Source: Candidatus Dojkabacteria bacterium
GTDB taxonomy: Bacteria; Patescibacteriota; Dojkabacteria; JAOAGR01
Reading direction: 5' to 3'
DNA: 64,000 bases
NCBI GenBank assembly: GCA_025999155.1
Contig: AP026679.1
Location: 602,561 to 666,560, forward strand
The position numbers and the translations under genes are program-made. The notes under the pieces are model-generated. The model saw nothing but the letters and a program-made list of their open reading frames with translations, did not search any database and was not told where the DNA came from. Positions 4,682 through 63,840 of the stretch are shown here, piece after piece (position 1 is the stretch's first letter; every line of letters begins with the position of its first letter).

Positions 4682-4720
4682 AATAAAATTTGTGTTTGAT
4701 GTAAAATCCTAGAGGGTGAC

Positions 4721-12051: not shown

Positions 12052-12477
12052 ATGGAGACCATAATGCGATTAAATGCATATCTTGCTAAATTTTCGAAGT
12101 TTATATTTGCTATATTTTTGCTGTTTTTATTCATTATTAATTTTATAAGTGTTCCTGCTGTTGCTAAATGTCCGGAAAATGTTGTGCCGAATCCGCTAGA
12201 TCCTAACTGTCAATTACAGCAACCCATCACTCTGGGCATGATTTTGAATCGAATCACTCCATTTATCCCAATTGCGGCAACAATTGCTGCAGTGTTCATG
12301 TTGATTGCAGGGGCGTTCGTGATGTTGACGTCTCAAAATGAGGAGGGACGACGTAAAGCGATACAGTTCTGGATTAATGCCGCCATTGGTCTGGTGCTTT
12401 TATTCTCGATATGGCTCATTTTATTTCTCATCTCGATATTTACTGGTGTGGATTTATTAAGTGCTGTAGGACAATGA
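12052..12477 (+). CDS. pilin-like secreted protein 1 (VirB2/TrbC-like topology: signal peptide, Cys region, C-terminal TM-loop-TM)
   Basis: Likely start at 12064 (MRLNAYLAKFSKFIFAIFLLF signal). C-terminal hairpin IAATIAAVFMLIAGAFVMLT-SQNEEGRRKAIQ-FWINAAIGLVLLFSIWL. Stop overlaps the next start (ATGA at 12474-12477). Confidence 0.45.
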   Translation: METIMRLNAYLAKFSKFIFAIFLLFLFIINFISVPAVAKCPENVVPNPLDPNCQLQQPITLGMILNRITPFIPIAATIAAVFMLIAGAFVMLTSQNEEGRRKAIQFWINAAIGLVLLFSIWLILFLISIFTGVDLLSAVGQ

Positions 12478-13118
12478 GATTATTATTCATCAGAAAGTTC
12501 AAACGGTATTTATCTCTTATATTCGTTTTTATTTTATCTGTTTGTTTTTTCTATTTTATTTCGGTGCATGTTTTTCAATCAAATGTTTTCGTACTGTTTG
12601 CTCCATCGCCAGTCTCCGCAGAGTCACGTTTGGAATGTCATGATCCTGCTTCCGATGTGTATGATTCTGCAGAATGCGTAAGGGTTAGGTTAGGTCTACA
12701 AGAGATTAAGACAGAGTCATTTCTTATACCCAGAAATCCGAATGACATCATTACATTAGTTTTTATTGTTGTGTTGGCGATTGCTTTCATGGTTTCAGTA
12801 TTTAGGGCTATACTAATAAGTATGAAGTTCTCTGCAGCTGGGGATAATGTGGAAAAGAGACAGGAAGCTCTAAAACAACTCGTGGCATCCCTAATTGCGG
12901 TGGCTGTGTCTTTTTCTGCTTTAGGTATAACTACGTTTATTGTAGTAGATTTACTAGGAGGTACGGTTAATAATACATTAGTTGATTGTGATAACTTACC
13001 AGCGAATGCCTCACAGGAATTAAAAGATAAGTGCAATTTATATATAAATAATGTAATTCCTACGCAAGATAGTGATCCTGGAAGGAGGCCTGTGGGTCCC
13101 ACTATGAGGGCAGAATAG
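12474..13118 (+). CDS. pilin-like secreted protein 2 (paralog)
   Basis: Signal-like N-terminus MRLLFIRKFKRYLSLIFVFIL. Hairpin LVFIVVLAIAFMVSVFRAILISM-KFSAAGDNVEKRQEALKQ-LVASLIAVAVSF. Cys-containing C-terminal tail. Confidence 0.45.
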   Translation: MRLLFIRKFKRYLSLIFVFILSVCFFYFISVHVFQSNVFVLFAPSPVSAESRLECHDPASDVYDSAECVRVRLGLQEIKTESFLIPRNPNDIITLVFIVVLAIAFMVSVFRAILISMKFSAAGDNVEKRQEALKQLVASLIAVAVSFSALGITTFIVVDLLGGTVNNTLVDCDNLPANASQELKDKCNLYINNVIPTQDSDPGRRPVGPTMRAE

Positions 13119-13171
13119 TTTTTTGTGATGAGTAGTATGGCTGTATAGGTTGCAAGTATACAAAAGTTGTA

Positions 13172-13801
13172 ATGTATGCTACAATTGTTTTGTACATTTA
13201 TATTATATTTATATTGATAGCTATGAAAATAGAATATACTAAAAATATTTCAGCAAAGATGGCTGTTCTGATATTTTTCCTTGCTGTGTTTGCTGTGGTG
13301 TTTTCGCTTAGCACCGTGGCGTATGCTCAGAATGCCAACAATAGTTGTGGTTCTGATCCATTAAGTGCTGCTTTCGGGTGTAACAGCATTATTAATAGTG
13401 GTAGAGGTATAGATATAGGTAGTATAATCACAATATTCTTTAGAGGTCTTTTAATTGCTTCTGGGGTATGGACTGTATGGCATTTTGCTCTTGCTGGCTT
13501 TAAGATTGGTGGTGCAAAAGAAGACGCTACAAAGAGGCAGGAAGGAATAAAGGCTGCTGTAAATGCCGTTTTAGGTCTTGTTGTCGCGCTGTTATCTTTT
13601 GGGGCGACTTCGCTTATTGCAGGTGCCGTAGGAGGAAGTGCGGCTATTTCTGCTGTAGGAACGCCGTGTACTGCTGTAGATGACCAAACTCAATTATTAT
13701 TTACAGGATTTATGGAGCAGGAGGGAGGATCTGTGTATTGTGTTTTGAGGGATGCACAAGGTAACCAACTCCGTAGGGGCCCTGTTACTTCAAGGACATA
13801 A
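13172..13801 (+). CDS. pilin-like secreted protein 3 (paralog)
   Basis: Alternative start at 13223 (MKIEYTKNISAKMAVLIFFLAVFAVVFSLSTVAYA). Hairpin GVWTVWHFALAGF-KIGGAKEDATKRQEGIKA-AVNAVLGLVVALLSFGA. Confidence 0.45.
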   Translation: MYATIVLYIYIIFILIAMKIEYTKNISAKMAVLIFFLAVFAVVFSLSTVAYAQNANNSCGSDPLSAAFGCNSIINSGRGIDIGSIITIFFRGLLIASGVWTVWHFALAGFKIGGAKEDATKRQEGIKAAVNAVLGLVVALLSFGATSLIAGAVGGSAAISAVGTPCTAVDDQTQLLFTGFMEQEGGSVYCVLRDAQGNQLRRGPVTSRT

Positions 13802-13905: not shown

Positions 13906-13982
13906 GAGCCATTAGCTCAGTTGGTTAGAGCACGGTTCTTATAAAGCCGGGGTCGCTGGTTCAAGCCCAGCATGGCTCACCA
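13906..13982 (+). tRNA. tRNA-Ile with unusual anticodon TAT (UAU), CCA encoded
   Basis: GAGCCAT/ATGGCTC acceptor stem, D-arm GCTCAGTTGGTTAGAGC, anticodon stem CGGTT/AGCCG with loop CTTATAA, T-arm GCTGGTTCAAGCCCAGC. Confidence 0.8.
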
Positions 13983-47617: not shown

Positions 47618-47621
47618 AGCT

Positions 47622-48572
47622 ATGAGAAAATTTTTTCGTGCCGTAAAAATTGCTTTTCAATATATCTACCGTAACTGGGGGCTGAGTGTAGCTTCTACGC
47701 TTGTTATGACTTTATCTTTTTTGATAGTTTCGGTTTTCGGAATAGCTTTTTATGGATCTACTTTATTAGTCCAGTATGTGGATTCTAAACCTGCTCTAAC
47801 TATCTTTTTACGTGGAGATCTGAGTGATGAACAAAGAGTGAAGTTTGAACAATTGGTGACCCAGACTGGTCTGGTGCGTGAAGTTTCTGTAAAGAATCTT
47901 GAATTTACCAAAGAAGATTTTGCAAAAAAATATCCTGACCCCGAATTAATTAAACCGTTAGAAACTGAAGAAGCTAAATCTTTCATGCCGATAATCGCCT
48001 TTATTTATAGTGATTCTCAAGATAAGTTACAAGAGTTAATAAATTATCTCGAGAAAAATGAGGAGTTCATGAAAGATATGATAGATACTAAAAATGTCGA
48101 TAGAGTAGGGTGGTATAGCTTTAGCGAGACTCAAGCCAGCATTATTCGAGAGACAAATCGATTTATTTCCATAGTGGGAACTATAGTGACTATAATGCTG
48201 TTTGTAATATCTTCTATTTTGATCTTTATTACAGTGAAATTAACTATTAACTATCATCGACGTGAAATTGAAATTATGGATTTGGTGGGGGCTGATGGCT
48301 GGTTTATACGATTTCCTTTTGTACTAGGAGGAATTATATATGGGGTGGTCGGTGCTGTTTTGTCTACAACATTAATTATAGTATCTCGTAATTTATTATT
48401 CGAAACATCTCAGTCACTTGTGCCTCGTTTACTTGAATTTTTCGGCGAAGTACCATGGCCAACTATTGATAATTATTTGATAATTGATTTCTATATCTTC
48501 ACCGTAGGAGTAGGTGCATTGATTGGTGCTCTGAGTAGCTTTATTGCAATTTTAAAATATGTTAAAAATTAA
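47622..48572 (+). CDS. ftsX: cell-division permease-like protein FtsX
   Basis: Four TM helices with a large extracytoplasmic loop after TM1; follows ftsE directly. Confidence 0.8.
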   Translation: MRKFFRAVKIAFQYIYRNWGLSVASTLVMTLSFLIVSVFGIAFYGSTLLVQYVDSKPALTIFLRGDLSDEQRVKFEQLVTQTGLVREVSVKNLEFTKEDFAKKYPDPELIKPLETEEAKSFMPIIAFIYSDSQDKLQELINYLEKNEEFMKDMIDTKNVDRVGWYSFSETQASIIRETNRFISIVGTIVTIMLFVISSILIFITVKLTINYHRREIEIMDLVGADGWFIRFPFVLGGIIYGVVGAVLSTTLIIVSRNLLFETSQSLVPRLLEFFGEVPWPTIDNYLIIDFYIFTVGVGALIGALSSFIAILKYVKN

Positions 48573-50061: not shown

Positions 50062-50138
50062 TGGTGGACCCTAGCGGATTCGAACCGCTCACCTCTTCTA
50101 TGCCATAGAAGCGTTCTAGCCAAATGAACTAAGGGCCC
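50062..50138 (-). tRNA. tRNA-Ala (anticodon GGC) with G3:U70, CCA encoded
   Basis: Minus strand GGGCCCT...AGGGTCC acceptor stem with G3:T70 wobble, anticodon loop ATGGCAT, T-arm AGCGGTTCGAATCCGCT, ACCA. Confidence 0.85.
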
Positions 50139-50166: not shown

Positions 50167-52074
50167 TTAGATGGCACAACGTTTGAATTTCTTGAGAAGT
50201 TCGTCTGTATTTATCTCTATCATAATGGGTCGTCCGTGTGGACAATTGTAGGGATCTTCACACTCCATTAATTGTTTTAGCAAGGAAATAATTTCTGGTT
50301 TTGTGATCTTATCTCCAAATCTTACAGCCGTATGACAAGCTAATTTTGCTGCTATATTATGATAGATTTTATGATCGAGATTAGTAGAGAGATCATGTTC
50401 TGTAAGTTCGTCAGCTATAGATATAAATACTTGTTTGAAATCATCCATTCTGATGCCATCTGGTACTTGTGTTATCTTTATTGATTTACTACCAAATGCT
50501 TCAAAGCTAAATCCAAACTCTGAAAAGGTCTCCGAATGTTTCAAAAGTTCTTGAATAGTAAATTCATCAAAATCTATAATTTCAGGGACTAGTAAAACTT
50601 TTGCACTTACGGTTCGAGATTTGAGTTGGTTCATATACCTTTCGTAAAAAATTCTCTCTGATGCTGCATGCATATCGATAATCAGTAGAGCTTTTTGATT
50701 CGCTGTAATAATGTAGGAATTTAGAAGTACTGTAGCATTATCTAAATCGCATAAAAATTTTTGTTCCTTATGGGATATGCCTTCAATTTCAAAAAGAGTT
50801 GGTCTTTCTGTGTCATCTCTCTTTTGTATTGCTGTTTTTTGGGATTTTGTGTGAGTGTGGTCAGTATTTGTAGTATTATCTCTATTATCGTCAGAGATTA
50901 TTTCTTTATTGAAATCTAATGCTTTTTTCGTAATCCAGTCAGAAATGTGATTTTTACGTCCGAATGATTGTTGTATATCACTGCGTAAAAAGTCTTCAAA
51001 CTCGGCTATAGGATCGGATGGTTTATCAATATTTGATTGTGAATTATTTGGTTTTGTATCAAGCTCTGAAATTTGTACAAAATTGCTTCTCGTCTTTTCG
51101 CGAATTGTACTTGTTAGCCGATGATTCACTGTAGAACGCACTGCTTTATAAACTTCACTAGCATTAATAAAGCGTACTTCAAGTTTACGAGGATGTATGT
51201 TGACATCAACTTCATTTGGTGGGACATCAACAAAGAGCACATAACCAGGAAATTGATTTTTCATCAAAAATGTATCGTATCCTTCTAAAACAGCTTTGCC
51301 TGCAATTGGATCATTCACTGGTCTAGAATTTACAAAAATGAATTGATTCGCCTTATTTCTAAATGTGATGCGAGGATGGATCAAAAAGCCGTAGACTTTG
51401 ACTCTCCCTTCACTTTGAATAGGAATAATGTTATCTACATCTATATCTAGGACTGCGCTAATTCTTTTGATATGGTCAGTTTTTAGAAAAGTTTTTAATT
51501 GACCATCTATATTGATTACAAAATCAACTTGTGGATTGCTTACAATAAATCGATACAGCACATCTTTTATGGCTTTGTTTTCTGTAGCTGGAGACTTGAG
51601 AAATTTACGGCGTACAACAATTTCACCAAATAGATCTTCAATAATAAAATTTGATCCGATAGTAATCGAACTTGGTTTAACCCTTAAATTTCGTCCAAAC
51701 TCAATAGAAATTTCAGAACCAATGGGATCGTCCTGATGATGTGTCTGTAATGTTACTTTCGCTACAGCTGCTATCGAAGCCAGAGCTTCGCCACGAAAGC
51801 CAAATGTTATTATGTTTTCTAGATCCGCAATAGTATTGATTTTTGAAGTAGAATGTTTTTGAAATAAGTGCTGAAAATCTCTTCGTGCAATACCAGTACC
51901 GTTATCTATGACCTGGATTTTTCCTATGCCATATTTTTCAATGTTCACGCGTATTTCAGTAGCTTTAGCATCAAGACTATTTTCGACTAATTCTTTTACT
52001 ACGGATGCAGGCCTTTCTACTACTTCCCCAGCTGCGATTTGATTGATGACTTCTTTCGGTAAGGGTTTGATCAT
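50167..52074 (-). CDS. mutL: DNA mismatch repair protein MutL
   Basis: GHKL ATPase N-terminus VINQIAAGEVVERPASVVKELVENSLDA, DNGTGI; C-terminal dimerization/endonuclease domain. Confidence 0.85.
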   Translation of the reverse strand: MIKPLPKEVINQIAAGEVVERPASVVKELVENSLDAKATEIRVNIEKYGIGKIQVIDNGTGIARRDFQHLFQKHSTSKINTIADLENIITFGFRGEALASIAAVAKVTLQTHHQDDPIGSEISIEFGRNLRVKPSSITIGSNFIIEDLFGEIVVRRKFLKSPATENKAIKDVLYRFIVSNPQVDFVINIDGQLKTFLKTDHIKRISAVLDIDVDNIIPIQSEGRVKVYGFLIHPRITFRNKANQFIFVNSRPVNDPIAGKAVLEGYDTFLMKNQFPGYVLFVDVPPNEVDVNIHPRKLEVRFINASEVYKAVRSTVNHRLTSTIREKTRSNFVQISELDTKPNNSQSNIDKPSDPIAEFEDFLRSDIQQSFGRKNHISDWITKKALDFNKEIISDDNRDNTTNTDHTHTKSQKTAIQKRDDTERPTLFEIEGISHKEQKFLCDLDNATVLLNSYIITANQKALLIIDMHAASERIFYERYMNQLKSRTVSAKVLLVPEIIDFDEFTIQELLKHSETFSEFGFSFEAFGSKSIKITQVPDGIRMDDFKQVFISIADELTEHDLSTNLDHKIYHNIAAKLACHTAVRFGDKITKPEIISLLKQLMECEDPYNCPHGRPIMIEINTDELLKKFKRCAI

Positions 52075-52114: not shown

Positions 52115-52936
52115 TTAATTATTTGTTGCTAGGCGAATCAGATTTTTAATCAATCCATACACTGTCATCGGTCCGACTCCGCCAGGAACAGGTGTGATAT
52201 GTGCAACAATACGCGATACTGTCTCAAAATCTACATCACCGCATAGTGTATTATTTTGGTCACGATTTATTCCTATGTCTATTACTGTTTGGCCTTCCGT
52301 AAAAAATGATTGAGTGAGAAATCTAGGTTTGCCGACAGCGGATATGACAATATCAGCCTCACGTGTCAAGTTAGATAAATTTTTGGTATATGAATGGCAT
52401 ATAGTAATAGTTGCATTTTTTTGTAATAGTGCAAAAGCAAGAGGTTTGCTGACTAGATTACTACGACCAATAATCACAGCATGTTTTCCCGCCACATCAA
52501 TGTTGTAATAGGAAAGAAGGTCTACTACTCCTTGGGCTGTAGCTGGCATGAAGTCAGATTCCCCAGAATAAAAGCTTCCGAGATTTTGAGTATGTAAACA
52601 ATCTACATCTTTTGTAGGATCTATATGATTTATTATTTTTCTTGCGTGTTGTATCAATGTTTCTGGAAGAGGAAGTTGGATTATAATGCCTTTTATGTTT
52701 TGATCTTCATTGAGCTTTGTTATTTCTTCGAGTATTTTTTCTAAAGGGGTGTTTGCTGCAAGATTTATTAATCGAAAACCTAATCCTAGTTCATTTAATT
52801 TTTTGGCTTTAATACGTAAATATACTTGTGATGCGGGGTTATTACCGATTAATAAGGCAGCAAGCTGTAAATTATCGCCAAATTTTGGTAGTTTTGCATA
52901 TAAATCATTTGAAGCTGCTATTCCTGACAAAATCAT
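52115..52936 (-). CDS. folD: bifunctional methylenetetrahydrofolate dehydrogenase/cyclohydrolase
   Basis: LAALLIGNNPASQVYLRIKAK, NAD(P) site VIIGRSNLVSKPLAFALL, PVPGGVGPMTV. Confidence 0.85.
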   Translation of the reverse strand: MILSGIAASNDLYAKLPKFGDNLQLAALLIGNNPASQVYLRIKAKKLNELGLGFRLINLAANTPLEKILEEITKLNEDQNIKGIIIQLPLPETLIQHARKIINHIDPTKDVDCLHTQNLGSFYSGESDFMPATAQGVVDLLSYYNIDVAGKHAVIIGRSNLVSKPLAFALLQKNATITICHSYTKNLSNLTREADIVISAVGKPRFLTQSFFTEGQTVIDIGINRDQNNTLCGDVDFETVSRIVAHITPVPGGVGPMTVYGLIKNLIRLATNN

Positions 52937-52943
52937 GATATGT

Positions 52944-53147
52944 TTACCTACTAAATAGTGCCGAACTCCCTAAAAATAGTGAAATGACGGTAATTAATAC
53001 TACAAGAATCCACAATATTTTGAATGCTAGACTTGCAGTGTATTTCTTTAATTTATTTATTAGCCTTTTTAGCCAAAGATATAATCGCTTTTTGTCTGTT
53101 TTATGTATATGTATTAGTAATGACTTCATATATTTAAATTGTCGCAA
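52944..53147 (-). CDS. small basic protein with C-terminal TM helix, hypothetical
   Basis: 67 aa; KKRLYLWLKRLINKLKK then ILWILVVLITVISLFL. Lies between pilin-like gene 4 and folD on the same strand. Confidence 0.3.
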   Translation of the reverse strand: MRQFKYMKSLLIHIHKTDKKRLYLWLKRLINKLKKYTASLAFKILWILVVLITVISLFLGSSALFSR

Positions 53148-53180
53148 AATTTTGAGAAATAAAGAGCTTCAAGTATTACA

Positions 53181-53861
53181 TTATTCACCACATGGATCAT
53201 TTCTATCGAAAGTAAGGTTAAAAACTATTGTATTTTGACAGATAAAGTTATATTCCTTACGTTCCGTATTTGCAACTCCAAATCCAAGCACCCCAACTAA
53301 GAAAAATACTAAGACAGGATAAGCGAACAAGAAACCAAACGTGGAGACGATTGATGCGACAAGACCTTTTACTGCTGTTTGTCTTTTATCTGTATTGTCT
53401 CCTGCCGTCATTATTAATACAGCAGCCTTTCCAATACTAAAGGCTAATACTAGGCCAACAATAGCGTATAGAATCATAACTATACGTACGATGATTTTTT
53501 GTAGAGTAGATGCGGAAGCACATGAGATGACCACTGGATTAATAGGATTACCTGCACTATCGAGTTGGTAACCGTAAACAACGGAACCGTTTACTCCTAC
53601 AGATACTTCAGGTCTCAGTGTAGGATTACCATAGCCATCTAAAGTTATATAAATGTTTTTTATGACATCGGGGCAGCCAGAGTTGTATATACGTCTAGCT
53701 ATTTCTTCAGCTTGGGGTGAGCTTCGATCTACCGGAGGACCATAGCTGTAGGCATATGCCGTGGAAATTTTACTTACTGTTGGAGTAATACCAAGACAAG
53801 CTAATATATTGAATATTACGAGCAGTAAGTATTTTGAATATTTACTTATATGAATTCTCAT
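53181..53861 (-). CDS. pilin-like secreted protein 4 (paralog of the 12.0-13.8 kb trio)
   Basis: Signal peptide KYLLLVIFNILACLGITPTVSKISTAYA. Hairpin IVRIVMILYAIVGLVLAFSIG-KAAVLIMTAGDNTDKRQTAVKG-LVASIVSTFGFLFAY. The loop is near-identical to protein 2 (SAAGDNVEKRQEALKQLVAS). Confidence 0.45.
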   Translation of the reverse strand: MRIHISKYSKYLLLVIFNILACLGITPTVSKISTAYAYSYGPPVDRSSPQAEEIARRIYNSGCPDVIKNIYITLDGYGNPTLRPEVSVGVNGSVVYGYQLDSAGNPINPVVISCASASTLQKIIVRIVMILYAIVGLVLAFSIGKAAVLIMTAGDNTDKRQTAVKGLVASIVSTFGFLFAYPVLVFFLVGVLGFGVANTERKEYNFICQNTIVFNLTFDRNDPCGE

Positions 53862-54027
53862 GATTGAATTTTTCTATATACTATATAATTTGATAATCTA
53901 ATTATTTCGAGTATAAAAAAGAAATGTATATAAAGCAATTCTAACATTAATTTCTCTCTTTAGTCATATGCAAGTTTTCTGTAATTTTCTTTACTTTTTT
54001 ATGGACATAACATTATATTTACAAAAT

Positions 54028-54042
54028 TTGTACTAGGTACAA
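54028..54042. promoter_or_regulatory. perfect palindrome TTGTACTAGGTACAA in the divergent promoter region between pilin-like genes 4 and 5
   Basis: 6-3-6 inverted repeat, 41 nt upstream of the 54083 start, inside a 220-nt AT-rich intergenic region. Confidence 0.3.
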
Positions 54043-54082
54043 GATTTATTGTTATTTAAAATAAATTATTCTATAATAAACC

Positions 54083-55075
54083 ATGTGGTGTGCACATAAA
54101 AATCTCCTCTTTGTTTTTTCTTTTGTTTTTATGAGCGTACTTTTTGGTGGGGTTGATTTTTCGCGGGTTTATGCACAGTCATCATTCACCGTTAATCCAT
54201 GCAAACCAACTGGTACTCAATCCAATGATGTAGCCTGTCGCTGTAAAAAAAATCAGTGTAGATTATCCAGTATGAATGCAGATGTTCTATACGTCAATTC
54301 TTCCAATTTGAGCGCAGCTGATTTCGACCCGAATTTGATAGCTGATGGGACTGTCTCAGAAACGACAGCTCTTGTAGTATCTATGCCGGGTTACGTATGT
54401 ATTGACGGGGTAGAAAAGTTAGATGCAAATACTTTTAGACTCGGAGAAGAAGGTAATAATCAAGTTCTTTCTAACTTTACCATATCTAACGTGTATGAGA
54501 CTCTGGAAACAGGTTCTGCTTCTTTACGTGCCGATTTAGATCCTAAAAATTCAGTTTATGTGGATGTCTTTGCTGATGATGTCAATAGATCATCTATACC
54601 TAAAGGTTCATTTTGTAAGCTAGATCCACAGTCGGGTGTTGCATATTGGTATTATCCGGGTTATTTTTCTGTGATTGGATTGAATCCTTCTGGTAATTCT
54701 GAGATATTTGGGCCAGGAGGTTTATGTGAAAATGTACTGTTTTCCTCAAGAGATTTGTTTGGTCAGCAAATTACTGGAACTCAAACTTTTTTTGGTTGTT
54801 TGCCGAATTCGCCAAATGGGTTAGTTGCGTTTATAGTGAGGTTAATTACTGGGTTAGCAGTTATTATAACATTTTTGATTATCCTAATTAATTTGTTGCA
54901 AATTATCTCAAATTCAACAAATCCGGATATCGTAGCTCGGGCTCAAAAGAAGATGACGAGTGCAATTATTACCTTAGTTGTAATCTTGTTTACTATTACT
55001 ATATTGAATATAATCGGCATTCAGATTATTGGTCTGGATGCTGGGGGAATATTCGGTCTATTTACGGGAGGCTAA
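54083..55075 (+). CDS. pilin-like protein 5 with an extended (about 230 aa) Cys-containing N-terminal domain
   Basis: Signal peptide LLFVFSFVFMSVLFGGVDFSRVYA, eight Cys in the N-domain. C-terminal hairpin LVAFIVRLITGLAVIITFLIILINLL-QIISNSTNPDIVARAQKKMTSA-IITLVVILFTITIL. Confidence 0.4.
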   Translation: MWCAHKNLLFVFSFVFMSVLFGGVDFSRVYAQSSFTVNPCKPTGTQSNDVACRCKKNQCRLSSMNADVLYVNSSNLSAADFDPNLIADGTVSETTALVVSMPGYVCIDGVEKLDANTFRLGEEGNNQVLSNFTISNVYETLETGSASLRADLDPKNSVYVDVFADDVNRSSIPKGSFCKLDPQSGVAYWYYPGYFSVIGLNPSGNSEIFGPGGLCENVLFSSRDLFGQQITGTQTFFGCLPNSPNGLVAFIVRLITGLAVIITFLIILINLLQIISNSTNPDIVARAQKKMTSAIITLVVILFTITILNIIGIQIIGLDAGGIFGLFTGG

Positions 55076-55116
55076 GGGTTTTCATGTTGTGGTAACAGTT
55101 TATAAGTAAAGCATAT

Positions 55117-57558
55117 ATGATTTTGTTTGATATGAGATATTTTGTTAAAATGGCTTCTAATAAAGATAAAAATATATTGAATAAGTTAAAGAGGATTTTT
55201 TGTGCAGCATTGCCAAGTAGAGGAGATTTAGTACTTTTCGGTAAATCTCTAGTGTTTTTGTTTGCAATACTTCTTGGATTGTCATTATTTTCACACCTTG
55301 CATCACCTGTAAAGGCTTTTAACTGGCCATGGGTGGAAGAAAAGGAAGTAGATTCTGCACCTGATGCTTTTTTTCAGTATATGAATTTCCAGGTGGCTGG
55401 TTGTTTCGGGTTGTCACAAGCACGTGACATAAAATATTCTGCTTTTACCGAGAATTTAGGTGTTGGTAGGAAAGTTGCTGAATATTGCCGGCAATTATCG
55501 GGTCCAAATGCTGCTTCTTCAGATCAGAAAAGTGGAATGTATGATACGGGTTTAGGGTGGATACAAATAGATTACGGAGCTACTGGTAGATTGATAAATG
55601 CTACTGCATCGGTATACGGTACGCAAGCTGTTCAGCCTGGTATGACGGTAGAATACTATGCCAAAAGGATTAGGGGGGAAGTGCTTGCTGCTGACAATCC
55701 TATGAGTGGAAGAAGCGTGTTGGCTCCTATTCTAGTACTTAATCAGAATTTGGTTAATCTTGCATACGGTTTGGTGGTTGTTGTGCTGCTTGTTTCATCT
55801 TTGAACATTTTGCTTAGCTCATTGACTGGACAGGAGGAAAAGGTAACTATAGTCCAATTAGTGATGAACGCAGGGGTAACTCTTTTGATTATTACTTTTT
55901 ATTATGAGATAGCAGCTATAATCTATGATCTAACTGTGAATTATGGCAATGCCCTGGTTGCTTCAATGATGGCCCCCTTTATCAACTCAAAAGTCATATT
56001 AGAAAGACTCTCACCTGGAGGAGATTTAGCTGTTATAAATTTACTTAATGTATACCAGTTTGTTGGTGTATCTGATGCTTTGCTCGTAGTACTACAAAGT
56101 ATAATGTCTGGTTTGTATCCTGCAATCGCACAGTCAACATCAGCGATAGGCGCTTCTTTGGGTGGTAGAGGAACTATTGATTCTCCATTCAACATCTTTG
56201 CAGGAATCTTTCAGTTTGCAGGGGGGTTAGGAGCTACAGGAGCTAGTATCTTCATTTCATCTTTTTTAGGTAATGCCGAGATATTCCAAGCTATTATTTC
56301 ATGGACCATTTTTGGCATAAATATAAAAATATTTATTAATCTATTAACTTCTTTTGTTACATTTACTATTTATGTTGGTTTTGGACCTTTGATTGCATTA
56401 GGAGGTATAGATGGTGGGTTTGCAAGGATATCCGAATCATTTAAAAAATTATTTGCATTGGGACTTGTTTTTCCGATGACCTTCTTATTTATTCTCTTAG
56501 GAGCTACGGCACTTAATCTGTCAATCAGAGAAAAGCCTTACGATGCCTCACAAGATTCTGTCAAAGCTATACCGTTGTGTAAGTATTCCCCTAGTGATCC
56601 AGCGAATACTGAGAATTCCATAATAGATAATGCTGGTTTGACTCAGTGGCTGCAAGATAGCATTGGTGGTAATCCAGATGTAGAGGATCCTGCTCGCTTT
56701 CGAAATAAAAATTTTGTTAATCAGAACATATTCGATGTAGTGCCAAAAGGGTATATAGATGGACTGAGAGATTGTAGACCCTCTTTATTTCCTGTTCCTT
56801 GGACCTTTATCCCTGCACCTTTTGGGACAGTTGGACAAAGACAGCTTCAGATACAGACAATAGATTCTTTAGTAAGAACATTCTTGGCTTTAGTGTTTAT
56901 AATACTGGCAGCCAGAGTTCCAAGTATTGTAAATGAAGCTTTGGGGGTTAGGGAAATGAATTCTTTGTCTAATATTACTTCAGCATTTGGCGCAGGAGCC
57001 AAAGGTGCCTTCGGTGCTGGAGGTACTATTTTCGCTACGGGTTTAGGTATGCTGTCTGCTGCGACTTCTGCTGCGACTAGAGTACCTATTCCTTTAGCTG
57101 GTCATTTAAATTCGGCGCGGGGGCTTGGACAAAATAGCTATCTTCAAGCTGTAGGTGGAGTCCTAGGTAGAGTTGTGCAACGTCTAAACCCAAGTTCTGT
57201 CCAGGATATAATAGCCAACTATTCAAAAAGGCAAAGTACTCCTGCTGAGATGGTTAATCAGTTCAATAGTGTTCGAAATTCTTTCTTAGGTGCTACCCCT
57301 GGGGCAGCACCTGCTGGAGTACCTACTCCTGGTACACCTGCCGCCGCTGCGGCAGGTGCTATGGATCCTGCTTATGCATCTCTGATTGCAGCTGTCCAGT
57401 TAGGTACAGCTTTCAAAGACTTGTCACAACAGACTACCGCTTTAGGGACTGTATTTAGTACATTTGGTGGTTCTATCGTTGCATTAACAACACAAATCCA
57501 AGCGTTTGCTAAAGAATTACGAGGTTTCATTGCTACAATCTCTATTGATGACGTATAA
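55117..57558 (+). CDS. large polytopic membrane protein, VirB6/TrbL-like by architecture
   Basis: 813 aa: signal/TM, about 180-aa extracytoplasmic domain, 6 or more TM helices, Gly/Ala/Pro-rich C-terminal region (GAGAKGAFGAGG, PGAAPAGVPTPGTPAAAAAGA). Confidence 0.35.
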   Translation: MILFDMRYFVKMASNKDKNILNKLKRIFCAALPSRGDLVLFGKSLVFLFAILLGLSLFSHLASPVKAFNWPWVEEKEVDSAPDAFFQYMNFQVAGCFGLSQARDIKYSAFTENLGVGRKVAEYCRQLSGPNAASSDQKSGMYDTGLGWIQIDYGATGRLINATASVYGTQAVQPGMTVEYYAKRIRGEVLAADNPMSGRSVLAPILVLNQNLVNLAYGLVVVVLLVSSLNILLSSLTGQEEKVTIVQLVMNAGVTLLIITFYYEIAAIIYDLTVNYGNALVASMMAPFINSKVILERLSPGGDLAVINLLNVYQFVGVSDALLVVLQSIMSGLYPAIAQSTSAIGASLGGRGTIDSPFNIFAGIFQFAGGLGATGASIFISSFLGNAEIFQAIISWTIFGINIKIFINLLTSFVTFTIYVGFGPLIALGGIDGGFARISESFKKLFALGLVFPMTFLFILLGATALNLSIREKPYDASQDSVKAIPLCKYSPSDPANTENSIIDNAGLTQWLQDSIGGNPDVEDPARFRNKNFVNQNIFDVVPKGYIDGLRDCRPSLFPVPWTFIPAPFGTVGQRQLQIQTIDSLVRTFLALVFIILAARVPSIVNEALGVREMNSLSNITSAFGAGAKGAFGAGGTIFATGLGMLSAATSAATRVPIPLAGHLNSARGLGQNSYLQAVGGVLGRVVQRLNPSSVQDIIANYSKRQSTPAEMVNQFNSVRNSFLGATPGAAPAGVPTPGTPAAAAAGAMDPAYASLIAAVQLGTAFKDLSQQTTALGTVFSTFGGSIVALTTQIQAFAKELRGFIATISIDDV

Positions 57559-57566
57559 GATCTTCT

Positions 57567-60227
57567 ATGAATCCTGCTACAGGTGGCGAACAAAATGGTA
57601 ACCCGATAGGACCTGCACAGATTCCTGGCGGAGTATCGGGTTCGAATGTCGGTAGTCAGCCAAAAGGATGGAGTCCCTGGGTTAATTCAGGAGGACTAGC
57701 GGCTGGATCTGGACAAAAGAACTCACCACAGGATAATCCCCCCCAACAGAATACACCACAAAGCAACTTTACATCAGCAGTGTTACAGAAGTTGCAAGAA
57801 CAAAATGAGCTACTTGCAAACTCCGGCTCACCAAATACTGAGCGACCAGAGACTCATCTATTGAACAATTCTCTACAAGGATCTGGCTATCCATTCGGGT
57901 CAGGATGGGGACCCAATGACTCTGCACCAAAAGGATTAGGGGTTGATTCGTCGCAACCAAGAACAAGAGGGCGTCTAAGTCCAGAGGTCCCATCTAATAC
58001 ATTCGGCACTTCCATACGACAAGTTCCATCAGTTACCGGCCTAGGATTGCAACCAGCAGCAAGCTTGCAACTTCCAACTGTTCGTTCGGGAAATCCTCCA
58101 CAAGCTGAAGCAAATACTCAAGGCGGAGATACTAAGGATCCATACAACGTCGCATATCTGCAAAGATTAAATCTTGATGGACTTCGCGGCGGAGGATCGG
58201 CTGAGTCAAGATTTAAACGTTTTGCTTCTGCAGCTAATCTTGGTGAAAAACCACCACCTATACTAAGATCATCACAGATCACCTTAGAACAAGGACAACA
58301 GCCATCTGATACACATACAACTAATTCAAATGTTTCGAGTGTGGGGGCGTTCGGTTCTGAATCAGTTGAAGCAACAGTTAATGCTGGGTCTCTTGCGGAT
58401 TCTATTGATACTAAATCTGAAGGAGATGTTGAGAAGCGTAGAAGTGCAGGATCAGCAAGAGGGAGACAGGTAGCAAGAAGAAAAAGATCAGCAGCAAGCA
58501 GAGTGGGAGTAGCAAATACGGTATATATGCCATCACTTAGTCCACACGGTGGTACAACATTGGGGGGGCAAGGAGTTGATACACCTACTGTAACGAGTTC
58601 AGAAATTCAGGGTACAGGTAGGCAACGTTCTTCTCTCCTTGTCCAGGGTGGAGAAGCAAGAGCTGGGTACGGGCCTATGTCAGACGTTTGGGAAGAGCCC
58701 ATATCTGAGGCTTGGAAACAGCCCGAGTCGGACGCTTGGCAACAGGGAGATCCTAAAACTGTTGCAGGACAGTCTCCTTCGGATGCTCCTTCCCGGGATG
58801 TAGATGTACAGCAACTTAAGACTCAAATCGATGGTGCGCAACAAATTGGACAACGGACACGATCAACAGCCTCCAATCTAGGTCAAGGTCTTGCCTCTAC
58901 AGGAAATAAAGCATCCCGAGCTCTTAAAACCGCAGCGACAGCTAGTAGGACAGCGCTTGTTGCAGGTAGGGCAGCGGTCTCCGCCATCGGAGCTGCACTA
59001 GCAACTCCTCAGGGTTGGTTCATTTTACTAGTGATTATTGTGTTGATACTTATAATAATAATTATTATAGTAGTGATCATACAGAGCTCTCAATCGAATT
59101 CAATTGCTGCAACTAATGAGGTAGCTCGCGAAACTGTACAAGCAACTATCAGTTCTGCTGCTTTTTCTGTTCTTGGCCCCAGTATCGGGCGTAATATACA
59201 GGTCCCCTTGGTTGCTAATTCTGATGGTGTAGAGAAAGACTCGAGTGATGCTGTCAGAAAAATATATGTTAGAGCTTTCCATCAATTAAGCGCTGATTCT
59301 AAAATTCAAGATTATAAGCTGACTTTACGAGTTAGTTTTCCTAACTCCTTAAATTTGTTAACACCGGAAGGGAAAGTTCTCGACAGAAACTCAAGTATCA
59401 TGACATTTAATGTTATAGGTGTGAGTAGTTTTGCTGTGATTGGCACAGATGCTGTGCGATGGGAATGTTCAAATGCTTGTAAAAGTACTGATATCGAAAT
59501 TATATTTACGAGTCCTATCGATCTTGCTAGCAGTGGCGGGCAAATATTACTGACTCTGGTTGCTTCAGATTTAAAGGATCAGCAAGGGGTTGTACTGCCA
59601 ACTACACAGATACGGGAGCTATGCTATGATGTTACTAATGTAGCAGGGTGTACGACAGCTACCCGATATGGTTCGGGTTCTGTAAGTGGAGGGGTATCAG
59701 GCCAACAGAATACCGGTTACACATCTGATGGTGTGTTACAGGTATGTCCTATGGATGTGAAAATCAATACTGGTGGCATAATATGTACTTCTGGAATGAA
59801 AGATAAAAGAGGCAATAAAGATCATAATGCAGTTGATATCGCTAGTGCTGATAATCAAGGGTTTTTGACGCAAGATGTAGTATCCCCAGTGACAGGTATA
59901 ATTGTGGCTATGTCTGATCCAAAATCAGAATTGCGTATAGGAGGAAGATGGTATCAGATTCAGGACGCTCAAAGGCCAGAATATACTTATGTAATTGCTC
60001 ATTTACAGCCTAATACAGAACCACAAGGTAGAGCATTTAATAAGGGAACAAGAATACAAGCAGGACAAATATTAGGAAAACCTTTTTATGCTACATCCGG
60101 ATATGACCGCCAATATTGGTCTGGACCTCATGTACACTTCCAGGTTCGACGAAATGGACAGGCCATCGATCCTGCTCCAGCCATAAGAGAAAAATGTGGT
60201 TGGCAGAATTTCAGATGTCCTAATTAA
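57567..60227 (+). CDS. bitopic cell-wall hydrolase: about 480-aa G/P/Q/S-rich disordered N-terminus, TM, extracytoplasmic domain ending in an M23 (LytM) peptidase
   Basis: TM GWFILLVIIVLILIIIIIIVVII at about aa 490. Canonical M23 order HNAVDIA ... VIAHL ... GQILG ... GPHVHFQV; paired Cys (CSNACKS, CYDV..GCTT, CPMD..ICTSG). Confidence 0.6.
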   Translation: MNPATGGEQNGNPIGPAQIPGGVSGSNVGSQPKGWSPWVNSGGLAAGSGQKNSPQDNPPQQNTPQSNFTSAVLQKLQEQNELLANSGSPNTERPETHLLNNSLQGSGYPFGSGWGPNDSAPKGLGVDSSQPRTRGRLSPEVPSNTFGTSIRQVPSVTGLGLQPAASLQLPTVRSGNPPQAEANTQGGDTKDPYNVAYLQRLNLDGLRGGGSAESRFKRFASAANLGEKPPPILRSSQITLEQGQQPSDTHTTNSNVSSVGAFGSESVEATVNAGSLADSIDTKSEGDVEKRRSAGSARGRQVARRKRSAASRVGVANTVYMPSLSPHGGTTLGGQGVDTPTVTSSEIQGTGRQRSSLLVQGGEARAGYGPMSDVWEEPISEAWKQPESDAWQQGDPKTVAGQSPSDAPSRDVDVQQLKTQIDGAQQIGQRTRSTASNLGQGLASTGNKASRALKTAATASRTALVAGRAAVSAIGAALATPQGWFILLVIIVLILIIIIIIVVIIQSSQSNSIAATNEVARETVQATISSAAFSVLGPSIGRNIQVPLVANSDGVEKDSSDAVRKIYVRAFHQLSADSKIQDYKLTLRVSFPNSLNLLTPEGKVLDRNSSIMTFNVIGVSSFAVIGTDAVRWECSNACKSTDIEIIFTSPIDLASSGGQILLTLVASDLKDQQGVVLPTTQIRELCYDVTNVAGCTTATRYGSGSVSGGVSGQQNTGYTSDGVLQVCPMDVKINTGGIICTSGMKDKRGNKDHNAVDIASADNQGFLTQDVVSPVTGIIVAMSDPKSELRIGGRWYQIQDAQRPEYTYVIAHLQPNTEPQGRAFNKGTRIQAGQILGKPFYATSGYDRQYWSGPHVHFQVRRNGQAIDPAPAIREKCGWQNFRCPN

Positions 60228-60237
60228 AAAATTCACT

Positions 60238-61212
60238 ATGCCAAGTACGCATGTTAAATTAGATAAAAAAATAATACTAGGTTTAATTGCAGTATTTATA
60301 CTATTTTTAGTGCTTTTACTACAGTCGATTTTTGTAAGGCCGTCATCAGATTCTAAACCTAAGTTTGATACCATTGAATTGCAATCTTTCTCTAATTACA
60401 AGTATGGCGATTACTTTACCGTAAATAGCGACATTGAATTCAAAACTACCAGCAATACTCTTGTATATAAAGTATCTGGTATTAATTCTGGGATAGAATC
60501 TGTCAAAAATGCAGCTTTGAAGTTAGGTCTTAGCAAGGAAATTCCTAACGTAAATACAAAAATCACAAAATGGGTAAAAGACGATGATAATGTACGTGCT
60601 CTGAATTCGGTCACTTTAGACAATATAAAAGGGACAGTTAATGTCTTTTATGAAAATGGTATCAATGAGAAGCCACTAGAGAGTGAAGATTATCTTAATT
60701 ATTTGAAGAGTTTTTTTGGTTTTCCGGATATGTATGAGATATATTTGATTAGTAAGGAAACTCAGCAAGATAGTGAGTTTTTAAATTATGGGGTCAAATG
60801 GCAGGAAAAAGATATCTATTTTGATCAGGCAGATAATATTTTTCTCAGCGTAACTATTGTCAATAAAAAAATCATCAGTGTATTTTTTCACTTGTTACCT
60901 ACCGAAATTACCGACTTTAAAAAGTTGAAGCCGATTGATAGGGTGACAAAAGATAATATTGCTTCTTATTATTATCAATTAAGTCTGAAACCGGAGGAAA
61001 TTCATAGCGCTTCAGAATATGGTAGCGAAACAATTGTTGTACCACCTGTGAAAGTTGGTTTAAGAGACCAAAAAGACGCATATATTTTATTTAACGATCC
61101 TACTTTGTCGTGGTTGCTTATACCTGTAATCGATTTTAACGGAGTATTTTTGGATGCAAATAACCAAAAGGGTAGCGCGAGTCTTTTGATAGTTAATCAA
61201 AATAATCGATAG
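60238..61212 (+). CDS. N-terminally membrane-anchored extracytoplasmic protein (VirB8/TcpC-like placement, unverified)
   Basis: TM IILGLIAVFILFLVLLLQSIF, then a 290-aa soluble domain. Directly follows the M23 hydrolase gene; ORF track start 60196 overlaps it, so the ATG at 60238 is more likely. Confidence 0.3.
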   Translation: MPSTHVKLDKKIILGLIAVFILFLVLLLQSIFVRPSSDSKPKFDTIELQSFSNYKYGDYFTVNSDIEFKTTSNTLVYKVSGINSGIESVKNAALKLGLSKEIPNVNTKITKWVKDDDNVRALNSVTLDNIKGTVNVFYENGINEKPLESEDYLNYLKSFFGFPDMYEIYLISKETQQDSEFLNYGVKWQEKDIYFDQADNIFLSVTIVNKKIISVFFHLLPTEITDFKKLKPIDRVTKDNIASYYYQLSLKPEEIHSASEYGSETIVVPPVKVGLRDQKDAYILFNDPTLSWLLIPVIDFNGVFLDANNQKGSASLLIVNQNNR

Positions 61213-61266: not shown

Positions 61267-63840
61267 ATGACTCCAGCAATGCAACAGTATTTGAAAATTA
61301 AGTCTGAATATCCTGATCATATAGTCTTGTTTCGGATGGGGGATTTTTATGAGACTTTCTATGATGATGCGAAAAAAGCTTCTGTTATCCTTGGGATTAC
61401 TTTAACAGCGCGTGATCGGGAGAAGAAAATCCCGATGGCTGGAATTCCTTTTCATTCATTGGATACTTATTTAAATAGATTAATCGAAAATAATGAAAAA
61501 GTTGTTTTAGTAGAACAATTAGAGGATCCGAAAAAAGCTGTAGGTGTAGTCAAGAGAGGCATCGTCCGTATTTTTACTCCTGGTACCACTTTTGATACCG
61601 AAACGAAGCAGAATAACTATCTTTTTAGTATTTATAAACATAAGCAAACATTTGACTGTGCTTTTGCCGACCTTAGTGAAGGTATAATTTTTATCATTCA
61701 ATTTGATAATTTCAATGACTTACTTAGTAACCTCATTATTACCTTACCAAAAGAAATTATTACAGTACGAAGTTCTTTTACAGATCCACAGCTTCATTCT
61801 ATAAAAGCTCACCTAAAAAAGACATTGTTAAGTGAATTAAATGAAAACTATTTTTCTGAAAAATGGTATGAAGAAAAAATCACTCCTATTTTAAAAGATA
61901 AATTATTACATCTAGAATCACACAGTGTGAATGGTCTTTTGAATTATTTCGTAGAAACACAAAGGACAGATTTAGGACATATTAATGAAGTAAAAATTTT
62001 CGGTTTAAAGGATTTTATGAAATTAGATGCAAATGCGATTGCAAGTTTAGAAATTTTTGAAGGACAAAGACAGGACGCTGTACCACTAATTCGAGTCATT
62101 GATCATACTGTGACACATGGAGGTGCAAAGCTGCTGAGAAAATGGTTGGCATCACCTTTAGTTAATGTAGAGAAAATAAAACAAAGACAATCTCAGGTTT
62201 TTGCTATAAAAAACCTTGGACAAGAGATTATTCTTAAACATCAACAAAAACTTGCCGAGATTCACGATTTAAATCGTATCGCCACAAAGATCGGTTTAAA
62301 AACAGCTAATGCGCGTGATCTAAGAAATCTTGTAGATTCAACAAAAACCATATTTGAGTTTATCTCTGATCTTAAAAAATACGAAAATTTGGATGCTATT
62401 GTAGAAAAACTAGATAGAATAGAGAAAGAAATTAAAATTTCTCAAGACATACTGGCATTGATTCATAAAACTATAGTAGACGCTCCTCCTCTATCTATTC
62501 GTGAAGGCAATATGATTCGGGCCGGTGTTTCTAAAGAATTAGACGAATTACATGATATTAAGACTGGAAGTAGTGAATGGTTACGTACTTTCGAGCAGCA
62601 GGAGATAAAAAAAACTAATATATCAACATTAAAGGTGAGATATAATAAAGTTTTCGGATTTTATATAGAGGTCTCAAAAGGTCAAAGTAAAAATGTCCCA
62701 TCAAACTATATACGTAAACAGACTTTAGTGAATGCAGAAAGATATATTACTCCAGAACTCAAAGAATATGAAGCTAAGTTTTTAAGTGCAGAAGATCGTA
62801 TAAACGCTTTAGAATATGAGATTTTTACAGATTTGCTTGAAAAAGCTAGTCAGTTAATCATACCTATTCAAAATATTTATCAAATTATTGCTGAACTTGA
62901 TGTCATCTATGCTCTTGCTTTAACTGCAATTATGAATCATTGGACATTGCCTTTGGTTAATGATGGTTTTGCTATAAAAATCGAGAATGGTAGACATCCG
63001 GTCGTCGAACATATTTTATTAAAACAAGGTAAGCTTTTTGTGAAGAATTCTTATGTAGCTGATGAAAATGCAACTCTCACCATAATCACAGGTCCAAATA
63101 TGGGTGGCAAATCTACATATTTGCGTCAGGTCGCCTTAATCGTCCTTTTAGCTCAAATAGGGTCGTATGTTCCAGCAGATCAAGCAGAAATCGGTGTTGT
63201 AGATCAAATTTTTACACGAATTGGTGCTTCGGATAATTTGAGCATGGGGGAAAGCACTTTTATGGTAGAAATGCTTGAAACCTCGTCTATTCTAAACAAT
63301 GCTACCAAACAAAGTCTTGTTATACTAGACGAAATTGGCAGGGGCACAAGTACATTCGATGGAATGAGTATTGCTTGGGCCGTTTGTGAATATTTAGCTT
63401 CTAAAGGGTGTAAAACCTTGTTTGCTACTCATTATCATGAATTAACTGACTTAGCAGATAAATACCCGACAATCAAGAATTTATGCGTAAAAGTGACGGA
63501 ATATGAAGGAGAAATTATTTTTTTACATCAAATAGTGCCTGGACGCGTTGATAAAAGTTATGGTATACATGTAGCCAAGCTTGCCGGTATTCCTAACAAA
63601 GTAATCACTACTGCACAAAAAATCCTGCATATTCTTGAGAGACAGAAAGATCGTTTACAACCAAAGCCTTATGATCTTTTTTCTGGGGCAGAAAATAAGG
63701 ATGACGAGTCTATAAATCAAGATTTTATACATGTGGACAAGATTATTGATATATTGGAGAAAATTGAGATTAATACTATTTCACCTCTTGAAGCCTTACA
63801 CTTATTACAACAGTTACAAGACATGGTCAAAAATAAGTAG
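61267..63840 (+). CDS. mutS: DNA mismatch repair protein MutS
   Basis: MTPAMQQYLKIKSEYPDHIVLFRMGDFYETF mismatch-binding N-terminus; Walker A GPNMGGKSTYLRQ; DEIGRGTSTFDG; HTH C-terminus. Confidence 0.9.
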   Translation: MTPAMQQYLKIKSEYPDHIVLFRMGDFYETFYDDAKKASVILGITLTARDREKKIPMAGIPFHSLDTYLNRLIENNEKVVLVEQLEDPKKAVGVVKRGIVRIFTPGTTFDTETKQNNYLFSIYKHKQTFDCAFADLSEGIIFIIQFDNFNDLLSNLIITLPKEIITVRSSFTDPQLHSIKAHLKKTLLSELNENYFSEKWYEEKITPILKDKLLHLESHSVNGLLNYFVETQRTDLGHINEVKIFGLKDFMKLDANAIASLEIFEGQRQDAVPLIRVIDHTVTHGGAKLLRKWLASPLVNVEKIKQRQSQVFAIKNLGQEIILKHQQKLAEIHDLNRIATKIGLKTANARDLRNLVDSTKTIFEFISDLKKYENLDAIVEKLDRIEKEIKISQDILALIHKTIVDAPPLSIREGNMIRAGVSKELDELHDIKTGSSEWLRTFEQQEIKKTNISTLKVRYNKVFGFYIEVSKGQSKNVPSNYIRKQTLVNAERYITPELKEYEAKFLSAEDRINALEYEIFTDLLEKASQLIIPIQNIYQIIAELDVIYALALTAIMNHWTLPLVNDGFAIKIENGRHPVVEHILLKQGKLFVKNSYVADENATLTIITGPNMGGKSTYLRQVALIVLLAQIGSYVPADQAEIGVVDQIFTRIGASDNLSMGESTFMVEMLETSSILNNATKQSLVILDEIGRGTSTFDGMSIAWAVCEYLASKGCKTLFATHYHELTDLADKYPTIKNLCVKVTEYEGEIIFLHQIVPGRVDKSYGIHVAKLAGIPNKVITTAQKILHILERQKDRLQPKPYDLFSGAENKDDESINQDFIHVDKIIDILEKIEINTISPLEALHLLQQLQDMVKNK

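Follow-up and report, generated by a model that had tools for sequence, protein, structure and literature searches.

The T4SS (type IV secretion system) ATPase VirB4 has been found in 18 of 20 classes of the Patescibacteria (candidate phyla radiation, CPR), Dojkabacteria included (PMC12102498). The T4SSs of these bacteria are chromosomal, carry arrays of VirB2-like pilins and are devoid of relaxases (PMC12102498). In Southlakia epibionticum the T4SS is essential (PMC10633639), and the pilin-array T4SS belongs to the small number of machines that the epibiotic life of CPR bacteria has been shown to require. These ultra-small bacteria are thought to use a type IV secretion pilus on host cells. 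The composition of such systems outside the Saccharibacteria is poorly known, and in Microgenomatia VirB6 is hard to detect, a scarcity that the survey attributed to extreme divergence (PMC12102498). Described systems, such as that encoded by SEML1_0006-0019 of S. epibionticum, combine several divergent VirB2-like pilins of the PF18895 type with a VirB6-type polytopic protein and a membrane-anchored peptidase or lysozyme that replaces VirB1, and are of monoderm (mating-pair formation type FATA, MPF-FATA) ancestry (PMC12102498). Here, we analyzed a 64-kb stretch of Dojkabacteria DNA (the window), in which a cluster of six genes (g1 to g6) between folD-mutL and mutS appears to share these features: it is likewise chromosomal and without a relaxase, and it encodes predicted counterparts of the pilins, the polytopic protein and the anchored hydrolase. 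Our favoured reading, with a probability of roughly 70%, is that of a Patescibacteria-type T4SS, a chromosomal, relaxase-less derivative of the MPF-FATA type, of which this cluster would be the detached module for pilins, VirB6 and hydrolase.

The cluster comprises the following genes (TM, transmembrane; aa, amino acids; nt, nucleotides):

52944..53147, minus strand: g1, small basic protein whose one TM helix is C-terminal (TTG start, 67 aa; starting at the ATG at 53129, 61 aa)
53181..53861, minus strand: g2, predicted VirB2-like T4SS pilin paralogue, 226 aa (hairpin at residues 113-192, nt 53286-53525)
54083..55075, plus strand: g3, predicted VirB2-like T4SS pilin paralogue with a Cys-rich ectodomain, 330 aa (hairpin at residues 242-320, nt 54806-55042)
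55117..57558, plus strand: g4, putative extended VirB6-like polytopic membrane protein, 813 aa (core at about residues 150-620)
57567..60227, plus strand: g5, predicted bitopic peptidoglycan hydrolase, 886 aa (M23 domain at residues 752-869, nt 59820-60173)
60238..61212, plus strand: g6, bitopic protein, its N-terminal TM helix followed by a ~290-aa alpha/beta ectodomain, 324 aa (gene callers use the start at 60238)

The 813-aa product of g4 (55117-57558) is 100% identical to KatS3mg084_0600 of Candidatus Dojkabacteria bacterium, which, by sequence identity, identifies the window as chromosomal DNA of the CPR/Patescibacteria organism Candidatus Dojkabacteria bacterium KatS3mg084. A preliminary description of this DNA had proposed the six open reading frames (ORFs), and all of them were found at the same coordinates and with the topologies described; for g1 it had given no strand, and the gene lies on the minus strand.

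The assignment of g2 and g3 to the family of VirB2-like pilins that forms arrays in Patescibacteria T4SS loci is likely, because g2 matched another pilin of the window (pB, see below; BLASTP, 4e-8), g3 matched array pilins and both were recognized by hidden Markov models (HMMs) of array pilins. A phmmer search with g3 returned 194 small proteins with two helices, all from pilin arrays of Microgenomates (best match 4e-17), and HMMs built from Microgenomates pilin arrays that neighbour VirB4 matched g3 at 3e-11 to 6e-10 and g2 at 2e-6 to 4e-5. Together with Pfam matches below the cut-off, these results bear out the earlier view of both proteins as VirB2/TrbC-like pilin paralogues. Both consist of a signal peptide, an ectodomain and a two-helix hairpin, which is C-terminal in g2, and a hydropathy scan placed TM helices at residues 12-30, 123-141 and 162-196 of g2 and at 3-21, 251-269 and 295-313 of g3. 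The ectodomains between signal peptide and hairpin measure ~90 aa in g2 and ~210 aa in g3, while usual array pilins are 110-140 aa long overall. The Cys-rich N-terminal domain attributed to g3 in the preliminary description is indeed present, with eight cysteines, although it spans ~210 aa after the signal peptide rather than 230 aa. Proteins resembling g3 also adjoin genes of the g4 family in two loci of a sister lineage (L090 and L091). A second group of pilin genes was found 40 kb from the cluster, between the genes for polynucleotide phosphorylase (PNPase) and tRNA-Ile/threonyl-tRNA synthetase (ThrRS), at 12052..13801:

12052-12477, plus strand: pA, T4SS-type pilin (Pfam T4SS_pilin, 34.1 bits, above the cut-off)
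12411-13118, plus strand: pB, T4SS-type pilin (Pfam T4SS_pilin, 29.5 bits, above the cut-off)
13172-13801, plus strand: pC, T4SS-type pilin (NCBIfam Mbov_0395 pilin-like family, 1.2e-5)

All three were matched by the array-pilin HMMs at 1e-16 to 3e-7. The window thus holds five pilin paralogues at two places and no detectable relaxase or VirD4, and pA to pC are probably further subunits of the same apparatus as the cluster.

VirB6 proteins are defined by at least five TM helices, optionally combined with large hydrophilic domains in the extended VirB6 proteins (PMC12857230). The topology of g4 agrees with the extended form: it contains ~9-10 hydrophobic segments and, at residues 601-813, an Ala/Gly-rich, helical and hydrophilic C-terminal extension. 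A profile built from 23 orthologues and searched against 1.84 billion representatives retrieved 562 relatives (representatives at 50% identity), mostly polytopic proteins of 450-650 aa, in which the motifs W..FRN.AY and FSYAIAGLxID occur; aligned by hhalign, the g4 group and the Microgenomates family were related with 99.5% probability (E 3e-23). Weak matches of the family were almost exclusively to T4SS families. Among 73 remote relatives of g4 these were TrbL/VirB6 (2) and TrbL_5 (1), at ~4e-4, and TrbC (8), and family members also matched MMCAP2_0566 (7), Mbov_0396 (2) and pLS20_p028 (1). An AlphaFold model from the 23 sequences reached a mean pLDDT (predicted local distance difference test) of 48, with 60-80 in the TM core, and its predicted fold matched DotA and VirB6 best; in Foldseek the top three hits of this low-confidence model were TrwI, but at E 1.4.

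The genomic company of the family points in the same direction. We gathered 80 loci of the g4-related family, mostly from Microgenomates, and clustered their ORFs. The Microgenomates order begins with 5-9 pilins, a large single-TM protein, the polytopic gene and an oppositely oriented gene, often followed by a PrgI/VirB3-like protein, TrsD, VirB4 and a protein of 900-1000 aa that has a CHAP domain at its C-terminal end. At least two array pilins were encoded upstream of the g4-family gene in 53 of 57 Microgenomates loci (median 6). In the 49 loci with sufficient flank, PrgI-like, TrsD or VirB4 genes were found downstream within 10 kb in 23, VirB4 in 17; these PrgI, TrsD and VirB4 genes are co-oriented with the pilin/polytopic module and lie 4-7 kb away (17-23/49 loci). 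They were identified as VirB4 (phmmer with PrgJ, 1e-39 to 1e-46; NCBIfam CD1110 VirB4, 3.4e-125), TrsD (9.6e-12) and PrgI (Pfam, 4.6e-5). From family context and predicted fold, we conclude that g4 is probably a highly diverged, extended VirB6-type protein, so that the VirB6/TrbL-like character ascribed to it from its layout gains support, even though no direct profile match was obtained.

A separate observation concerns a TM hairpin within Microgenomates g4-family proteins (loci L006-L085), which the array-pilin HMMs matched at E 1e-4 to 8e-6 (for example residues 199-265 in L078 and 137-196 in L032), while the same HMMs did not match g4 or the controls TcpH, TrwI and PrgH. This hairpin could be a pilin-like hairpin of the platform protein or an artefact of TM composition, and such matches may account for the Pfam TrbC matches (8/73) mentioned above.

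The third component is the hydrolase. The first 480 residues of g5 are of low complexity (64% G/S/P/Q/N/T/A) and are followed by a single TM helix (residues 486-504, nt 59022-59078) and an ectodomain, which ends in a Peptidase_M23 domain scoring 35.9 bits in Pfam, above the cut-off of 28.7 (residues 752-869). The zinc-ligand motifs HxxxD (HNAVD) and HxH (HVH) are intact and were kept in all Dojkabacteria orthologues, and the solved structures nearest to g5 are M23 enzymes. The preliminary description's view of g5 as an M23 hydrolase with a 480-aa N-terminus, reminiscent of PrgK-type enzymes, is therefore upheld, by score and by its PrgK-like position. A metagenome scan additionally uncovered a sister lineage (loci L089-L091) in which the neighbours of the g4, g3 and g2 relatives are a 954-1017 aa membrane protein and, after it, a single-TM protein of 244-320 aa. 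The C-terminal head at the g5 position is M23 in Dojkabacteria and L091 and Peptidase_C39_2 in L090, and in Microgenomates (e.g. L011 and L012) the large anchored protein after VirB4 carries a CHAP head. Since M23, C39_2 and CHAP domains are found at equivalent positions, this comparison shows a conserved, predicted large anchored protein with an exchangeable wall-hydrolase head (M23, C39-like or CHAP); monoderm hydrolases of the VirB1/PrgK type carry such exchangeable domains (PMC12102498). In L091 we also noticed a sortase gene and a gene for a 1666-aa protein (576-6315) directly upstream of the g4-family gene, which suggests that a sortase-anchored surface protein is associated with the module in the sister lineage.

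The two remaining genes encode small or bitopic membrane proteins. With a TM helix at residues 12-30 and a gene directly after that of the hydrolase, g6 occupies the PrgL/VirB8-like position, and it is this position and topology that would suggest a VirB8-like scaffold. The VirB8/TcpC-like identity proposed earlier found no counterpart in sequence or profile searches: no relation was found in Pfam, NCBIfam or the PDB, and hhalign against TcpC, TrwG, PrgL and PrgD gave probabilities below 1%. Orthologues were found only in Dojkabacteria (word-indexed searches returned 2-4 proteins). The AlphaFold model from 5 sequences was too poor to interpret (pLDDT 44), and Foldseek with this model gave YpeB/PepSY as its best match (E 0.016) and scattered local NTF2/SnoaL matches, none of them significant. 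In g1, a basic N-terminus precedes a TM helix at residues 40-58 (hydropathy scan). Its sole family match was a weak, SecE-like one (E 0.013). The ORF is intact in both close relatives examined, and an ORF of 63-80 aa of the same design lies between folD and g2 in four further contigs (L001, L004, L094 and L095).

To what extent this arrangement is a stable part of the chromosome was apparent from its conservation. Contigs carrying g4 orthologues at ~80%, 42% and 30-35% identity had the same gene arrangement. Beside mutL and folD, the 63-80 aa ORF shares its strand with the gene of a ~200-226 aa pilin, and a divergent arm encodes a pilin of ~330-358 aa, the polytopic protein and then two proteins, the first 840-1350 aa and the second ~325-342 aa long. 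This six-gene order beside folD-mutL recurs in seven Dojkabacteria contigs (L001, L003, L004, L092, L093, L094 and L095), in which only the downstream neighbour changes, being either mutS or a signal peptidase gene; synteny was thus kept in all Dojkabacteria lineages sampled, down to ~30% identity. For two close relatives, the ratio of non-synonymous to synonymous substitution rates (dN/dS) was 0.14-0.50 for g2 to g6 (0.19-0.27 for g2), compared with 0.12-0.24 for folD, mutL and mutS. The genes of the cluster are real, given the same order in independent Dojkabacteria contigs at 80%, 42% and ~30% identity and these dN/dS values; by the same comparisons, the cluster is evolving under purifying selection and is vertically inherited in Dojkabacteria.

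Consistent with this, neither flanking or boundary repeats nor an adjacent tRNA gene of the cluster were found, and no integrase, relaxase or recombinase was detected in the 64-kb window. Between the cluster and the nearest tRNA gene (50062-50138) lie mutL and folD. With no repeats, tRNA junction or recombinase, and with synteny this deep in all Dojkabacteria sampled, we rejected the interpretation of the locus as an integrative and conjugative element (ICE). In this respect the preliminary description, which had suggested a chromosomal structure and had seen no VirB4/VirD4, relaxase, integrase or repeat boundary in the window, was correct on each count. The local G+C content rises at 56-60 kb to 0.42-0.475, compared with 0.34, and this rise coincides with the Ala/Gly-rich tail of g4 and the N-terminus of g5. 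We rejected horizontal acquisition as its source because the rise maps onto low-complexity coding sequence.

Between close strains, divergence was unevenly distributed. Synonymous divergence (dS) between the window and L092 was 0.16-0.22 for mutL, folD, mutS and g6, and 0.34 for g2, 0.64 for g3, 0.73 for g4 and 1.39 for g5, the last with 49.5% aa identity. Compared with L093, only g2 and g3 had diverged (0.40-0.45 against 0.04-0.06). This mosaic pattern suggests allelic replacement of putatively surface-exposed parts by recombination. Because they diverge in this mosaic way between strains, the surface parts g3 to g5 are candidate determinants of the interaction with hosts.

If the cluster belongs to a T4SS, its products could act together as follows. 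Sec would export the pilins g2, g3 and pA to pC, which would then be held in the membrane as a store of VirB2-like subunits with two helices, and the N-terminal ectodomains of g2 and g3 would decorate the filament or its tip. As a VirB6-like platform or channel, a role assigned from R388 and Dot/Icm, g4 might serve pilin assembly, whereas the TM-anchored g5 would expose its extracellular M23 domain and cut peptidoglycan cross-links, its presumed substrate, allowing the apparatus to cross the cell's own or the host's wall. By their position, g6 and g1 may be bitopic accessory or scaffold proteins, and the apparatus would be powered by VirB4, acting with TrsD and PrgI/VirB3 from genes at another place of the genome. 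The sequence of pilin pool, VirB6 platform, M23 wall breach and distant VirB4 is drawn by analogy with R388 and Dot/Icm (in part from PMC12857230).

Several results weigh against placing the cluster in a T4SS. VirB4, VirD4, TrsD and PrgI were found neither in the 64-kb window nor in the 10 kb flanking each of the Dojkabacteria loci that we examined, and 26 of the 49 Microgenomates loci likewise had no VirB4 module within 10 kb. The Pfam T4SS_pilin (PF18895) matches of g2 (E 1.4e-4, 22.3 bits) and g3 (E 4.3e-4, 20.7 bits) stayed under the cut-off of 26.6, g4 matched no family in sequence searches of Pfam, NCBIfam and PDB sequences, nor did hhalign relate it to the single sequences TrwI, PrgH and TcpH, and no homologues of g5 or g6 were detected outside Dojkabacteria and the sister lineage. 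The cluster might instead encode a self-contained surface filament or contact apparatus that does without VirB4, its VirB2-like pilins being assembled on the g4 platform through Sec insertion or an unrelated motor. No ATPase is linked to the module in any of the seven loci from Dojkabacteria or in L089-L091 of the sister lineage, as in about half of the Microgenomates modules, and such a structure possibly corresponds to the NCBIfam 'CPR-type pilus', whose protein PamT (NF058579.1) was weakly matched by one relative of g4 (E 0.0063); in the literature consulted, a search for 'PamT' or 'CPR-type pilus' found no paper describing Pam proteins. We nevertheless consider a self-contained filament unlikely. 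In the Microgenomates loci described above, PrgI, TrsD and VirB4 genes run in the same direction as this module, and no VirB2-type pilus is known to form without VirB4. In addition, two Dojkabacteria assemblies are scored VirB4 'Yes' (PMC12102498 Table S1). The ATPase-less surface structure suggested by the preliminary description is therefore right in that no VirB4 or VirD4 was found in the window, and probably wrong in being self-contained, because homologous modules lie 4-7 kb from PrgI/TrsD/VirB4 in many Microgenomates and Dojkabacteria genomes are reported as VirB4-positive. A T4SS that is split, with its ATPase outside the window, is the simpler reading; by analogy, we infer that the cluster is genetically separated from its ATPase module and that VirB4 lies elsewhere in the genome. 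A bolder version of the ATPase-independent pilus, which we find doubtful, would have the VirB2-pilin/VirB6-like module stand on its own, genetically and functionally, in Dojkabacteria and about half of the Microgenomates as a VirB4-uncoupled 'CPR-type' pilus, with a g4-family platform that includes a pilin-like hairpin and with g3, g4 and g5 swapped between strains by recombination to track hosts.

The core genes that surround the cluster (upstream ftsE, ftsX and the gene of an EnvC-like M23 protein, then mutL, folD and mutS), its vertical inheritance and the lack of a T4SS-specific sequence signature in g5 and g6 would also suit a complex for cell-envelope or peptidoglycan remodelling in division or morphogenesis, unrelated to secretion, in which g5 would be a housekeeping M23 enzyme and g4 its membrane partner. 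However, g2 and g3 very probably belong to the T4SS pilin-array family, genes of the g4 family are found in the company of pilin arrays and VirB4 and not of division genes, the predicted fold of g4 is closest to DotA and VirB6, and a separate FtsEX plus M23 set is already encoded 3 kb upstream, all of which makes a remodelling complex quite improbable. That the locus is what remains of an integrated conjugative element in decay, with ATPases, relaxase and integrase already lost, is scarcely credible. Such a remnant could explain why only the envelope genes of a T4SS-like set are present and why the G+C content is raised, yet gene order and chromosomal site were kept down to ~30% protein identity, the ORFs and catalytic motifs are intact at dN/dS values of 0.14-0.50, repeats, tRNA junction and recombinase are lacking, and the raised G+C falls on Gly/Ala/Pro-rich coding stretches of low complexity in g4 and g5. 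We thus favour the detached module of a Patescibacteria-type T4SS.

The immediate surroundings of the cluster consist of the following features:

50167-52074: mutL, flanking the cluster
52115-52936: folD, flanking the cluster on the g1 side
53862..54082: g2-g3 divergent intergenic region of 221 nt, presumed from the sequence to be a promoter region
61267-63840: mutS, flanking the cluster on the g6 side

The intergenic region contains a -35/-10-like site at 54049-54077 (plus strand) and is presumably the promoter region, although promoter-like sites were only marginally enriched (63, versus 48 +/- 7 in shuffled sequence). All ORFs of at least 500 aa outside the cluster are housekeeping genes, and the housekeeping genes of the window include those for ClpB, an IscS-like aminotransferase, MurJ, PNPase, ThrRS, a photolyase, an AddA-like helicase, a signal peptidase, RecG, SpoIID, SmpB and FtsA. 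Three kilobases upstream of the cluster (46940-49926, plus strand), FtsE, FtsX and a 455-aa coiled-coil/M23 protein form an EnvC/PcsB-like set. In the 455-aa EnvC-like protein the M23 match spans only the first half of the profile and HxH is seemingly replaced (YYHIQ), which resembles non-catalytic LytM activators. A tRNA-Ile gene with the anticodon TAT (UAU) is located at 13906-13982 (plus strand); few bacteria have tRNA-Ile UAU, and the usual reader of AUA in them is a CAU tRNA modified with lysidine. Two genes are seemingly split, namely clpB (1765-2379 with Clp_N and the start of the AAA domain, 2399-4090 with the remainder) and that of an AcrB/SecDF-type membrane protein (19041-19682 and 20138-21763), and these may be frameshifts, sequencing errors or genuine splits.

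The g4 family, with at least 562 representatives at 50% identity, is a good candidate for the VirB6 subunit missing from Microgenomatia, because it adjoins pilin arrays, lies near VirB4 and has a VirB6/DotA-like predicted fold. The Dojkabacteria locus further indicates that the system can be split over the chromosome, and searches limited to virB4 neighbourhoods would therefore undercount its parts.

Compared with described Patescibacteria T4SSs, the pilin, VirB6 and hydrolase genes of this locus do not adjoin VirB4, TrsD or PrgI, large ectodomains precede the hairpin in two of the pilins, the hydrolase g5 has a disordered N-terminus of 480 aa, and g4 has a C-terminal extension of ~210 aa and is missed by standard profiles through divergence. 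In addition, the locus is tied to folD-mutL and is not near dnaA. The Prg/Pcf system of the Enterococcus faecalis plasmid pCF10 has the same order of a polytopic protein, a large bitopic hydrolase (PrgK 871 aa, g5 886 aa) and a small bitopic protein; indeed, PrgH, PrgI, PrgJ, PrgK and PrgL give the order of g4, g5 and g6 once VirB3 and VirB4, which lie between the polytopic and the hydrolase genes, are removed. However, pCF10 also encodes VirD4, a relaxase and adhesins, lacks VirB2 pilins, and its PrgH, PrgK and PrgL share no detectable sequence similarity with g4, g5 and g6. A further parallel is the Mycoplasma ICE, with the NCBIfam families Mbov_0395 (pilin-like), Mbov_0396 (TM protein), Mbov_0397 (VirB4), MMCAP2_0565 and MMCAP2_0566. 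The pilins matched Mbov_0395 (to 4e-8), relatives of g4 matched Mbov_0396 and MMCAP2_0566 (to 4.9e-6) and the Microgenomates VirB4 matched Mbov_0397, and the trio of pilin, TM protein and VirB4 is therefore common to the Mycoplasma ICE, although every match was under the curated cut-offs, g4 itself matched none of the families and the Mycoplasma genes belong to a mobile element with relaxase-type machinery. R388 TrwI/VirB6 and Legionella DotA, to which the predicted fold of g4 is closest, are stalk/protochannel proteins of diderm T4SSs with an outer-membrane core complex, and they share 8-15% identity and no profile-level sequence match with g4. As a kind of system, the Patescibacteria T4SS is thus already known, while four points appear to be new, namely the recognition of a diverged VirB6-type family, the detachment of the module and its anchoring at folD, the ectodomain-bearing pilins and the exchangeable hydrolase domain.

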